In this document: positions 48,812-53,471 of the stretch, in pieces
Layout of the letters: each line of letters begins with the position of its first letter
How positions within the stretch are numbered: the first letter of the stretch is position 1
NCBI RefSeq assembly: GCF_009931435.1
Contig: NZ_CP043414.1
Source of the DNA: Escherichia coli
GTDB taxonomy: Bacteria > Pseudomonadota > Gammaproteobacteria > Enterobacterales > Enterobacteriaceae
DNA: 64,000 nucleotides
Strand: one strand, 5' to 3'
Program-made: the position numbers and the translations under genes
Notes under the pieces: generated by a model
Seen by the model: only the letters and a program-made list of their open reading frames with translations
What the model was told of the DNA's origin: nothing
The model's database searches: none

Positions 48812-49864
48812 ATGAAAAAGACCCGTACAGCCAATTTGCACCATCTTTATCATGAACCCTTACCCGAAAACCTGAAGCTCACGCCGAAGGTCGAAGTGGA
48901 TAATGTTCATCAACGGCAAACAACGGATGTCTATGAACATGCTTTGACGATTACCGCCTGGCAGCAGATTTACGATCAGCTGCATCCGGGCAAGTTTCAT
49001 GGTGAATTTACGGAAATTCTACTCGATGATATTCAGGTTTTTCGTGAATACACCGGTCTGGCGCTGCGTCAGTCGTGCCTGGTCTGGCCGAACTCGTTCT
49101 GGTTTGGCATTCCGGCGACACGCGGTGAGCAGGGATTTATCGGTTCGCAATGTCTGGGAAGCGCAGAAATAGCGACGCGCCCTGGAGGAACCGAGTTTGA
49201 ATTAAGTACGCCGGACGATTACACGATCCTTGGCGTGGTGCTTTCTGAAGATGTCATCACCCGTCAGGCTAACTTTTTGCATAACCCGGAAAGGGTGCTG
49301 CATATGTTACGTAACCAGTCGGCGCTGGAAGTGAAAGAGCAGCATAAAGCCGCGCTGTGGGGCTTTGTCCAACAGGCTCTGGCGACATTTTGCGAGAACC
49401 CGGAAAATCTCCATCAGCCTGCAGTGCGAAAAGTGCTGGGGGATAATTTGCTAATGGCGATGGGGGCGATGCTGGAAGAAGCGCAGCCAATGGTGACGGC
49501 GGAAAGTATCAGCCACCAGAGTTACCGTCGCTTGTTGACCCGCGCGCGTGAATATGTGCTGGAGAATATGTCCGAACCGGTAACCGTGCTGGATTTGTGC
49601 AATCAACTGCATGTCAGCCGCCGCACGCTACAAAACGCGTTTCACGCTCTTTTAGGCATTGGCCCAAACGCGTGGCTGAAACGCATTCGCCTGAACGCCG
49701 TGCGCCGCGAACTGATAAGCCCGTGGTCGCAAAGTACAACGGTCAAAGATGCCGCCATGCAGTGGGGATTCTGGCATCTGGGGCAATTCGCCACGGATTA
49801 CCAGCAACTGTTTGCCGAGAAGCCGTCTCTGACGCTACATCAGCGGATGCAGGAACTGGAGTGA
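48812..49864 (+). CDS. eutR: AraC-family transcriptional activator of the eut operon EutR
   Basis: 350-aa ORF with C-terminal AraC-type helix-turn-helix. Confidence 0.9.
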
Positions 49865-49940
49865 GGGTGAGGGCCGGATGAGGATGGTGTTTGATCCGGT
49901 CCATAGTGAAGTTACAAATTACGTTGAATTGCTATGTATT

Positions 49941-50258
49941 TTATTGCCCAACGGGATAGGCGATAAACAAACCGACAATTGTCAGAATACACGCCAGCAG
50001 GAATACCAACATACAATTTACGCGCTTTCGCGAAATTTTAAATAAATAGCAAAATAGTGTTGTTACCACGATCACTACCGGGATAGTCATAAAATTAATA
50101 ACGATGAGTGCTATCAATCCAAAACTTGCTCCTCCACCGTGGGGAATAAAAATGTGTTCTTCAAAATAAACTTCTATAGCAAATGCCAGCACACATCCCA
50201 GAAAACTCATATCCAGATGAGGGTGCCATTTACTTTCTTTATTTGATGTGTCTGACAT
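49941..50258 (-). CDS. hypothetical small membrane protein (105 aa, three predicted transmembrane helices)
   Basis: ATG 50256-50258 with GGGAG Shine-Dalgarno about 9 nt upstream, TAA at 49941-49943; three hydrophobic stretches after a polar N-terminus; visibly AT-rich relative to its flanks; I do not recognise the protein. Confidence 0.6.
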   Translation of the reverse strand: MSDTSNKESKWHPHLDMSFLGCVLAFAIEVYFEEHIFIPHGGGASFGLIALIVINFMTIPVVIVVTTLFCYLFKISRKRVNCMLVFLLACILTIVGLFIAYPVGQ

Positions 50259-50298
50259 TCTTAAATGCTCCCGTGAGCAAACTGGCGCAAAATAATTT

Positions 50299-51561
50299 CT
50301 AAGATTGCTGATAAGACGTCGCTGTTGTCCGGCACTCCGGGCAGATAAACGCGTAAATTATCCCTTCGCCATATTGTTCAATATCGGCATAATCCAGTTG
50401 CGCAAGAAACATCATTGTGTGGGAACATTGCGGACAGAGAGGATATTCCGCGTCCTGAATCCAGGTTGGATGCCCGCCAAGTTGCGAGAAAGAGACAGGT
50501 AAAAATGGGTCTGCGGCAAATAACGGTGACCTAAGGTTTCCCTGTCTCATGCTGTTTACAGGGAGTCGACGCCATTCCGATACATCATCCGGCAGCTAGG
50601 CAGGCGGGATATTTTTTGCAGACAAATGAGCGTTACCCTTTGAGTCCATGTAGCCGAAAATGGTGCTGTAGGCGGTGCAACATTCGCAAGTCACGACGCG
50701 AAAACTGCCGTTATCGCTAAGACCCGTTGCCTTCAGGTCAACGTCGAAAAGATTTGTTAGGGGCAATGCGCACTTTGGACAGGTATCGCTGCGTTCATCA
50801 ACAACACGCAAAGCTTCGCAAGACCCGGTGCTTTTCATCTCCAGATGAAAACATTGAGGAAAATAGAGATTACGCCTTTGATCTTCAGCGGTTAACTCCC
50901 AACCGGCCTCATGCGCATATTCTTCTGGCGCGATGTAAAGTGAACTGCGCCACAGCGGCGGGTTATTGCGCCAGTAGGCAAAACGTTCAACAACAACGTC
51001 ATCCCCAATCCATGCCAGACATTGCAGAATACAATTTCTGTTTTCTGCATCATCCTCAACCCGTTCTAACAGCGTATCGCGAACATCCGCTGGGGCGCGG
51101 TGGAAAGGCAGAGGAGAATAAGCGTCTAAATCATCATAAGAGATCCACTCTCGTAAATATGCATCCAGATTTGCCTGGGTAAACGCCGCCAGACAAAGAC
51201 AAATCTCCTGAGCGTGTTCATATTCACCAGACGCAAAGCGTTCTGTGGCGTAATCAGCCATCAGCTGCGCTTGATCGGCGGTCAACTGTTGATACAGGGC
51301 ATCGGTGGGAGCGGGGCAGGGAGTCCAGTCGATTAACGCATCGAATTTCCGTGGCTGGTGAACTAATTTCAGCATGGCAATCGGATCGCTTAGCCCAGCA
51401 AACACATTCACGGTCTTTTTATTTTTCCTGATATATTCATCGTGCTCACGCTGCTGTTGTGCCTGAACGCAGGGCATACAGTATCCGTCAGTACGCGCAG
51501 CGGTTTCCGGAAGAATGGTTGATGTACAAGCGGGGCTTTTACAGGGAATACGGTGAGTCAT
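50299..51561 (-). pseudogene. Cys-rich multi-zinc-ribbon protein gene with tentatively DUF1963/YwqG-like C-terminus; 420-codon frame interrupted by one in-frame TAG at 50596-50598
   Basis: ORF track entries 50596..51561 (321 aa) and 50299..50550 (83 aa) are in the same frame; the 45 nt between them read through as LPDDVSEWRRLPVNS; AAGGAG Shine-Dalgarno 8 nt upstream of ATG 51561; Cys pairs CKSPAC..CMPC, CPKC..CECC and CPQC..CPEC. Confidence 0.6.
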
Positions 51562-51698
51562 AGAGGCGCTCCTTGCCTGAGGATATTAAGTCGAAAGAGA
51601 TTATTATTAGATATTAGGGTGTCACTATGGCACACAAATTAAACAGAATTAATTTCAAGCCACAAACATAGGGTTATTTTTCTTTTATTTTCATGATA

Positions 51699-52601
<903 letters not shown>

Positions 52602-53471
52602 TTACCGCTTTCTCGAGTGTGCTTTCTGGTTGTCAAACCAGTGGAAATAACTGATCACGCCTTCGGCAATGGCTGTGGCGATTTTCTGGCGAAATGCCGC
52701 CGTGCCTAACAGCCGCTCTTCTTCCGGGTTGGTGATAAAAGAAGTTTCCACCAGCACCGAAGGAACAGATGGCGATTTCAACACTACAAACGCGGCTTGT
52801 TCGGTGTTGCGACTGTGCAGCTTATGCACCGGCTTAATCTTCTTCAGAATATGTGAGCCGAGCGTCAGGCTGTTTTTAATAGTATCGGTTTGTACCAGAT
52901 CAAACAGCACTTGTTGCAATAGGTGATCCTTGTCAGTCGCTTTTTTACCGGCAACTTCATCAGCGCGGTTTTCGCGTTCAGACAAGTATTTCGCCATTGC
53001 GCTACTTGCGCCGCGGTTCGAGAGAGCAAATACCGAAGCACCGGCAGCTTTCGGGTTAGTAAAGCCGTCGGCGTGAATTGACATAAACAGGTCAGCGCCA
53101 TGTTTATGGGCGATTTCAACGCGATCGTACAGCGGGATAAACGTATCGCCAGAACGCGTTAAACGCGCATCAATGCCATGATTACGCAAAATGGAACGGA
53201 CGTTTTTGGCAATCGCCAGCACCACATGTTTTTCTTTCGATCCATTGCGACCAATCGCTCCGGTATCAATTCCGCCGTGGCCTGGATCGAGAACAACGAC
53301 ACGTTTGCCGCCGCTTTTTTTGGCTTTCGGCTTACTGTGTCCGTTACTGGTTTTTAAAGGTTCTTCTTTGGCGATGGCTTGCGACATTCCTGACAACGTC
53401 AGGGCAGCCAATCCGGCTTTCAGCACCTGGCGGCGCGAAGTGAGTGTTTTTAGTGGTTTAAAAGTGCTCAT
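52602..53471 (-). CDS. amiA: N-acetylmuramoyl-L-alanine amidase AmiA
   Basis: 289-aa ORF with twin-arginine signal TSRRQVLKAG. Confidence 0.95.
   Translation of the reverse strand: MSTFKPLKTLTSRRQVLKAGLAALTLSGMSQAIAKEEPLKTSNGHSKPKAKKSGGKRVVVLDPGHGGIDTGAIGRNGSKEKHVVLAIAKNVRSILRNHGIDARLTRSGDTFIPLYDRVEIAHKHGADLFMSIHADGFTNPKAAGASVFALSNRGASSAMAKYLSERENRADEVAGKKATDKDHLLQQVLFDLVQTDTIKNSLTLGSHILKKIKPVHKLHSRNTEQAAFVVLKSPSVPSVLVETSFITNPEEERLLGTAAFRQKIATAIAEGVISYFHWFDNQKAHSRKR

Follow-up and report, generated by a model that had tools for sequence, protein, structure and literature searches.

ypfK, a small AT-rich gene between eutR and hemF in the 64,000-nucleotide stretch of Escherichia coli DNA analysed here (the window), is a real and intact gene that is already catalogued and uncharacterised, and its product is a predicted three-pass inner-membrane protein. 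The best explanation of its role, to which we assign a probability of about 0.4, is that YpfK serves as membrane-embedded partner to the protein specified by the adjacent upstream gene, a member of the TYPP (YwqG/DUF1963) superfamily. In this strain the TYPP gene is broken by an amber codon, so that ypfK is left as an orphan. The features of the locus are as follows:

48812..49864, plus strand: left-flank gene eutR, unusually divergent from K-12 over its last ~700 nt (87-96% identity)
49865..49940, between the convergent genes eutR and ypfK: a 76-nt spacer with a hairpin at ~49871-49902 and no T-run
49941..50258, minus strand: ypfK CDS, ATG start, 105 aa; predicted three-pass inner-membrane protein, N-in/C-out
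50259..50298, minus strand: spacer from the TYPP stop to the ypfK start, 40 nt, GC 0.40
50268..50272, minus strand: GGGAG Shine-Dalgarno, read from the sequence, 9 nt 5' of the ypfK ATG
50299..51561, minus strand: TYPP gene (Zn-ribbon/helical-repeat/YwqG, DUF1963), 420 aa; a pseudogene in this strain
50299..50550, minus strand: 83-aa 'Cys-rich frame', the in-frame C-terminal remnant of the TYPP gene, with GGHP and two CxxC motifs
50596..50598, minus strand: premature TAG at codon 322 of the TYPP gene; TGG (Trp) in relatives (alignment column 1104)
51562..51698, minus strand: spacer from the hemF stop to the TYPP start, GC 0.33; possible promoter region
51699..52598, minus strand: hemF, the right flank, 90-97% identical to K-12; ypfK or TYPP is always 3' of it

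ypfK is an intact gene under purifying selection

An earlier note on this DNA had described an AT-rich frame of 105 codons preceded by a GGGAG Shine-Dalgarno, and these observations hold: the ORF lies on the minus strand with an ATG start (the N-terminal sequence, translated from 49941..50258, is MSDTSNKESKWHPHLD), and GGGAG occupies 50272-50268. The GC content of ypfK is 0.384 (GC3 0.358), against 0.531 (GC3 0.593) for eutR and 0.544 (GC3 0.573) for hemF, and in a windowed GC comparison along the 64 kb only 1.07% of 318-nt windows match its AT-richness, which bears out the compositional contrast with the two flanking genes that the note had drawn. When the 434-nt spacer was shuffled 5,000 times with its dinucleotides preserved, an ORF of at least 105 aa appeared in 74 cases; hence, the length of the frame is by itself only modestly significant.

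It is the conservation of the frame across genera, together with its dN/dS, that marks ypfK as a real gene: between genera dN/dS is 0.11-0.34, and the alternative of a spurious ORF, which the earlier note would have favoured had conservation and expression been lacking, is made very improbable by this result. The corresponding values for the neighbours are 0.04-0.08 (hemF) and 0.02-0.07 (amiA), and the dN of ypfK is 4-5 times that of hemF; ypfK is therefore constrained, yet changes more quickly than hemF and amiA. Within E. coli, piN/piS is 0.32 for ypfK and 0.30 for the TYPP gene, the second codon position of ypfK varies least, and the frame is intact in all 10 alleles examined. Judged by these substitution patterns, ypfK is under purifying selection.

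The DNA of ypfK is identical to an annotated CDS of E. coli MFDS1022581 (WP_001285748.1, 'hypothetical protein'); the gene itself is the same in both, whereas the window differs in context, its ypfK adjoining a TYPP gene with a premature stop. RefSeq holds the same kind of protein under WP_001285748.1 and WP_001285745.1, both named 'hypothetical protein'. The Pfam family PF26378 (YpfK) is a precomputed match on proteins 88-97% identical to that of the window and is recorded also on every syntenic homologue. Our direct Pfam-A scan of YpfK at E up to 10 returned only noise (CPP1-like and DUF819), because the Pfam-A version used predates the PF26378 model. The window protein shares with the members of PF26378 its length, three hydrophobic segments, the conserved motifs and the site 3' of hemF, the last being an empirical feature of the contexts recovered here that stands outside the definition given by the authors of the family. 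We thus place the ORF in PF26378 on sequence grounds that are indirect but strong. The literature search found no paper on ypfK; Rfam gave no match, the YpfK profile matched no PDB sequence at E up to 10, and NCBIfam, PADLOC and PHROGs gave no useful match for YpfK.

The scan for promoters and terminators found no consensus promoter or terminator in the spacer between hemF and the TYPP gene, and nothing convincing for ypfK. As no terminator is called between hemF and ypfK, the latter is probably co-transcribed from upstream. The hairpin in the spacer shared with eutR is insignificant (fold z-scores of -1.5 and -1.6), and the scan called no terminator there.

Predicted topology and conserved residues of YpfK

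The three hydrophobic segments that the earlier note had read from the translation are recovered by Kyte-Doolittle hydropathy at residues ~17-32, 44-73 and 80-103, and likewise by an AlphaFold2 model of low confidence (pLDDT 57.8), which has helices at 14-31, 44-73 and 82-100. The sole strongly basic loop, KISRKR (residues 74-79), lies between TM2 and TM3 and, by the positive-inside rule, points to an N-in/C-out topology: the N-terminal tail and the loop 74-79 would be cytoplasmic and the C-terminus periplasmic. The chain ends 2-5 residues past TM3 and has no charged C-terminal tail.

Across 11 aligned YpfK sequences, drawn from several genera, 23 columns are invariant, among them E29 in TM1, N55 and P60 in TM2, the glycine-rich loop IFIPxGGGxSFG (36-47) and the FIAYP motif at the C-terminus. 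With its length in the family range of ~95-110 aa, its three helices and all of these residues and motifs, the window protein has every family feature. Given the predicted topology, the best-conserved parts of the protein, namely the IFIPxGGGxSFG loop and the GLFIAYPVG C-terminus, would face the periplasm.

The upstream TYPP gene and its inactivation

The earlier note had placed ypfK 40 nt downstream of a Cys-rich frame on the same strand. The spacing is correct; the frame, however, is not a gene and should not be treated as one. A 321-aa ORF (50596-51561) and the 83-aa ORF (50299-50550) form a single 420-codon frame split by the TAG, and the 'Cys-rich frame' is the tail of the broken TYPP gene. 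The internal stop is present in one of 10 E. coli alleles, that of the window itself; the other nine are intact.

The TYPP protein is named 'DUF1963 domain-containing protein' by PGAP, and Pfam DUF1963 matches it with E=5.8e-5 over residues 359-406 only (~50 residues). It carries the motifs QLGGHPTWIQ, with GGxP and the conserved Gln, and CPQC...CPEC, a paired CxxC; GGxP, the conserved Gln and the paired CxxC are the defining motifs of the TYPP/YwqG superfamily (PMC4275035). Compared with other YwqG/DUF1963/TYPP proteins (B. subtilis YwqG, PDB 1PV5; eukaryotic PDCD2 and Tsr4), the 420-aa protein has in addition a zinc ribbon at its N-terminus and a region of helical repeats. We counted its fold as like that of B. 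subtilis YwqG (1PV5), though Foldseek against the PDB, run with a model of a TYPP-linker-YpfK fusion, gave nothing significant; a PDB sequence search with the TYPP protein was also negative. A homologue from Citrobacter is 74% identical, full-length homologues with 38-59% identity occur in Kluyvera, Phytobacter, Yokenella, Klebsiella, Salmonella, Chitinimonas and Paenibacillus, and a genome scan recovered homologues with 41-52% identity in Clostridium, Planctomycetota and Verrucomicrobiota.

Distribution and gene order of ypfK and the TYPP gene

YpfK homologues are found solely in Enterobacteriaceae, both in a phmmer search with the single protein against 1.84 billion representatives and in a word-seeded profile search of 5.8 billion proteins; neither search recovered distant relatives in other contexts. 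One match with 38% identity was rejected as a distant relative, being the same locus in an indel-ridden assembly. Searches by tblastn of 72,556 plasmids and 50,697 phage records recovered no homologue. A contig scan of representative genomes with YpfK peptide patterns confirmed no locus; E. coli and Salmonella representatives were also missing from the results with TYPP patterns, so those representative genomes apparently have no such segment.

All the ypfK contexts recovered lie directly 3' of amiA-hemF, and every ypfK in them adjoins a TYPP gene or a recognisable TYPP remnant. The order is hemF-TYPP-ypfK in Escherichia (including E. albertii), Kluyvera, a Klebsiella-like species and an enteric metagenome contig; it is reversed, hemF-ypfK-TYPP, on three Salmonella contigs, of which that of Paratyphi A has the TYPP gene intact. 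On the other two of these three (L007 among them) hemF-ypfK is followed by a TYPP remnant with a ~940-nt deletion. In a further Salmonella type (L013) the ypfK allele is Escherichia-like and follows a TYPP remnant of 70 aa.

Either gene may be damaged or missing while the other is kept. ypfK is frameshifted in E. albertii with the TYPP gene intact; in E. coli WL297 an intact TYPP gene is accompanied by a 221-aa AT-rich gene in place of ypfK; and the ypfK of one Salmonella locus (L006) has a 12-aa deletion in TM2. The TYPP gene is intact and ypfK is absent in Yokenella, Superficieibacter, UBA3516 and all non-enteric species with homologues: an HMM scan of every ORF at these TYPP loci found no YpfK, and there is no small polytopic ORF 3' of their TYPP genes. 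Both genes are intact in the enteropathogenic strain EPEC E2348/69, where their locus tags are E2348C_RS14085 and RS14080.

The eutR-hemF segment as a probable old accessory haplotype

Of 5,426 complete E. coli genomes 28 carry the segment, EPEC E2348/69 among them; in K-12 only 5 nt separate the stop codons of eutR and hemF, and no remnant lies there. It counts as an insert only relative to genomes of the K-12 type. The description of ypfK as the distal gene of an insert is accordingly right in that it occupies the eutR-proximal end of a segment absent from most E. coli, and wrong if a recent insertion is meant. The repeat search of the window found no target-site duplication and no terminal inverted or flanking repeats, and the lack of target-site duplications and terminal inverted repeats leads us to reject a mobile-element origin. 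Further, the flanks are themselves divergent: hemF and amiA are 90-97% identical to K-12, and identity rises to 97-100% deeper into eut. The eutB of the window is 95-99% identical to 5,315 E. coli records, which marks the window as E. coli. Two Salmonella ypfK alleles are separated by a dS of 2.36, compared with 0.04 for amiA and 0.28 for hemF, and in every host with a hemF for comparison, hemF has a higher GC3 than ypfK and, where there is one, than the TYPP gene. A recent mobile-element insertion does not fit this pattern of divergent flanks, a deep allele split and no repeats. It fits an old, divergent accessory haplotype that would have been lost many times and spread by homologous recombination.

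The same spot 3' of hemF elsewhere holds TacAT, TPR proteins with Tli3, and a ZorD/DpdE-like SNF2 helicase.

YpfK as a proposed membrane partner of the TYPP protein

We interpret ypfK and the TYPP gene as a two-gene unit at a single chromosomal site, 3' of amiA-hemF, with YpfK as the membrane-embedded partner. The TYPP domains are predicted to be peptide-binding and chaperone-like (Burroughs and Aravind, PMC4275035), and on this basis YpfK could be either an anchor for a cytosolic TYPP protein or its client, held via the cytoplasmic tail of YpfK. This reading draws on the adjacency of the two genes in at least four genera despite the reversed order in Salmonella, on their similar piN/piS and composition, on the reported fusion of YwqG-family proteins to transmembrane regions (Burroughs and Aravind, PMC4275035), and on chaperone precedents within the superfamily, such as the eukaryotic TYPP protein PDCD2, reported to be a dedicated chaperone for ribosomal protein uS5 (PMC7736825). 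A physical or functional coupling of YpfK and the TYPP protein is what we infer from these observations.

Several findings weigh against the partnership. The coupling is not obligate: an intact ypfK occurs beside a broken TYPP gene, and an intact TYPP gene where ypfK is frameshifted, replaced or absent. TYPP genes are widespread without YpfK, and the predicted topology puts the most conserved parts of YpfK on the periplasmic side, while the TYPP protein is cytosolic. The suggestion in the earlier note that the small membrane protein is the partner of a soluble protein gains some support from the adjacency in at least four genera, including the order-reversed Salmonella. AlphaFold2 modelling of a TYPP-linker-YpfK fusion, based on 8 paired rows and without PAE, gave pLDDT 27-75 for the YpfK blocks and >90 for TYPP; the confidence of YpfK was not raised, which is a weak and uninformative negative.

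A more specific form of the partnership, in which the two proteins are one unit that couples a cytosolic peptide-binding sensor or chaperone to a three-helix membrane protein, is speculative, and we hold it to be improbable as it stands. Such a unit might take the form of a chaperone-client pair tethered to the membrane, or else of a new conflict module of two genes in which YpfK is the membrane effector. An obligate toxin-immunity or toxin-antitoxin pair with the TYPP protein was considered and rejected: intact TYPP genes occur with a frameshifted, replaced or missing ypfK, and the converse is seen too.

Alternative readings

The alternative that survives best, though we think it rather unlikely, is that YpfK works alone in the inner membrane and adjoins the TYPP gene for historical reasons only, both being passengers of a variable spot. 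It might, for instance, be a small oligomeric ion- or substrate-binding membrane protein that uses the buried E29 and N55, and the invariance of this intramembrane Glu and Asn is consistent with such a role. The survival of each gene intact without the other is in keeping with it, as are the occurrence of TYPP genes in Paenibacillus, Clostridium, Chitinimonas, Planctomycetota and Verrucomicrobiota with no YpfK-like neighbour and the unrelated cargo (TacAT, TPR proteins with Tli3, the ZorD/DpdE-like SNF2 helicase) that occupies the same spot in other genomes. What it leaves unexplained is the persistence of the adjacency though the gene order differs between Salmonella and Escherichia, and the fact that all recovered ypfK genes lie beside a TYPP gene or its recognisable remnant. 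The invariant TM1 Glu recalls the SMR transporters of the EmrE type, which have an essential TM1 Glu within four TM helices; YpfK has three segments and no Pfam match, and the likeness is a resemblance only.

The earlier note had conjectured an immunity role. E1-type colicin and microcin immunity proteins are small, three-helix membrane proteins like YpfK. By analogy with their size and layout, YpfK could be an orphan immunity protein against a pore-forming or membrane-acting toxin of competitors, be it a bacteriocin, a T6SS effector or a CDI effector. Several properties of the gene would suit this: it is an AT-rich accessory gene of sporadic occurrence (28/5,426 E. coli genomes), it evolves fast (dN 4-5 times that of hemF), its two Salmonella alleles are deeply split (dS 2.36, against 0.04 for amiA), and an immunity gene of the T6SS Tli3 family is present at the same spot in another strain. 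On the other side, none of ~12 contexts examined contains a toxin gene; the 72,556 plasmids and the 50,697 phage records hold no homologue; and no immunity family is matched in Pfam (E up to 10) or NCBIfam (E up to 1). Unlike mobile toxin-immunity cassettes, ypfK keeps to a strictly fixed chromosomal site, and its dN/dS is overall well below 1. The likeness to colicin and microcin immunity proteins is offset by the lack of a family match, of an adjacent bacteriocin gene and of any plasmid copy, by the fixed site, and by a conserved loop and C-terminus that are predicted to be periplasmic. We regard an immunity function as quite unlikely.

Less probable again is a conflict or defence module of two genes, in which the TYPP protein would act as the sensor and YpfK as the membrane effector that, once triggered, would oligomerise and depolarise the membrane. 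The neighbourhood rich in defence and toxin-antitoxin genes (the ZorD/DpdE-like SNF2 helicase, TacAT), the sporadic and compositionally atypical occurrence of the pair and the conserved polar residues within the YpfK helices would all accord with this, but neither protein has a PADLOC match, the TYPP gene mostly occurs without YpfK, and the two genes decay independently.

We give marginally less credence still to the view that the ORF has lost its function and is a relic, or else is a spurious frame in an AT-rich spacer. It can appeal to an ORF length that is only modestly unlikely by chance (74/5,000 shuffles reach 105 aa), to the absence of any consensus promoter or terminator call, to a partner gene that is already dead in this strain, and to the damaged copies, namely the E. 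albertii frameshift and the 12-aa TM2 deletion of the Salmonella L006 copy. Set against these are a frame kept across at least four genera with dN/dS of 0.11-0.34, a second codon position that is the least variable, the 10/10 intact E. coli alleles and a Shine-Dalgarno at a functional distance from the ATG.

Class I holins have three TMDs and are N-out/C-in, and AmiA is a Tat-exported housekeeping amidase. A holin-like role, which the earlier note had also conjectured, as a gate for the export or release of a wall hydrolase such as the nearby AmiA, is highly improbable and was rejected on the topology, tail, phage-record and family tests: YpfK shares with class I holins of the lambda S105 type a length of ~105 aa and three hydrophobic segments, and amiA is on the same strand as ypfK, two genes upstream of it, but the predicted N-in/C-out topology is the opposite of theirs, there is no charged cytoplasmic C-terminal tail, no phage context or endolysin partner, no homologue in the phage records and no PHROG or Pfam holin match, and amiA is present also in the great majority of E. 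coli that have no ypfK. The immunity and holin readings are both without support, having failed every test that could be run.

Significance of the locus

By itself ypfK matters little, being a catalogued gene of narrow distribution in an accessory segment, with a partner inactivated in this strain. The eutR-hemF junction varies between genomes, and old divergent haplotypes are found there as well as toxin-antitoxin, immunity and helicase cargo. The adjacency of ypfK and the TYPP gene through the swap of their order offers a cheap genetic entry to the YwqG/DUF1963 proteins, for example in EPEC E2348/69. If the coupling of YpfK to the TYPP protein is true, the unit would be the first experimental handle on the function of the bacterial YwqG/DUF1963 proteins.

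The TYPP gene of the window is disrupted

The accessory segment, which occupies the interval between eutR and hemF, carries two genes, the upstream of which is interrupted in the window:

49941-50258, minus strand: ypfK, encoding a 105-aa predicted three-helix membrane protein (PF26378)
50299-51561, minus strand: the TYPP gene, a 420-aa YwqG/DUF1963 gene
50596-50598, minus strand: a TAG (amber) codon within the TYPP gene

At the position of the amber codon the relatives have TGG, encoding Trp322, and the gene is thereby cut into a 321-aa and an 83-aa ORF. An internal stop was found in just one of the 10 E. coli alleles compared, namely that of the window.

The same gene differs from that of E. 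coli strain MFDS1022581, whose ypfK is identical in DNA to the window copy, by 22 mismatches besides the amber codon, all of which fall within ~240 nt of its 5' part (window ~51261-51500). Outside this patch and the amber codon, the 1.8-kb segment is identical in the two strains. Because the ~240-nt patch matches the allele of E. coli WL297 at the protein level, the TYPP gene of the window appears to be a mosaic produced by recombination.

Alleles of ypfK in other genomes

Two Salmonella loci, L007 and L013, possess deeply diverged ypfK alleles (dS 2.36, dN 0.37), and the amiA genes adjoining them are nearly identical to each other (dS 0.04). The L013 allele is nearer to that of Escherichia (dS 0.79). 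The E. albertii ypfK (L014, 6001-6317) has a 1-nt frameshift, and a further Salmonella copy (L006, 6001-6294) has lost 12 aa in-frame within helix 2.

A variable junction in divergent flanks

A divergent haplotype block surrounds the accessory segment: the 3' part of eutR (49170-49864) and the hemF-amiA region (51699-53250) display 87-97% identity to K-12, and deeper into the eut genes this is 97-100%. K-12 and the window also disagree over the final four codons of eutR, which ends in …RMREWG in K-12 (L015, 1440-1500) and in …RMQELE in the window (49810-49870); therefore, the divergence extends fully to the junction. Elsewhere in the window, GC is ≤0.40 in three further stretches: 19271-20039 (mostly intergenic, upstream of a 1,037-aa efflux-pump gene), 24991-25359 and 34571-35079 (mostly intergenic, between a malic-enzyme gene and the first eut gene).

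The content of the eutR-hemF junction varies, with cargo seen in E. coli WL297 (L009), E7-1N7 (L010), E2348/69, A37 and A25 (L008, L073 and L074) and Salmonella L013. Its types include a TacA/GNAT toxin-antitoxin pair; two TPR proteins with a T6SS Tli3-family immunity gene; and a 1,147-aa SNF2 helicase matching ZorD/DpdE defence models. Homologous AT-rich genes of 221-223 aa (GC3 0.32-0.36), lacking matches in Pfam, NCBIfam or PADLOC, follow ypfK in L013 (8320-8991) and the TYPP gene in WL297 (1775-2440), there in place of ypfK. This gene may be a third member of the ancestral cluster.
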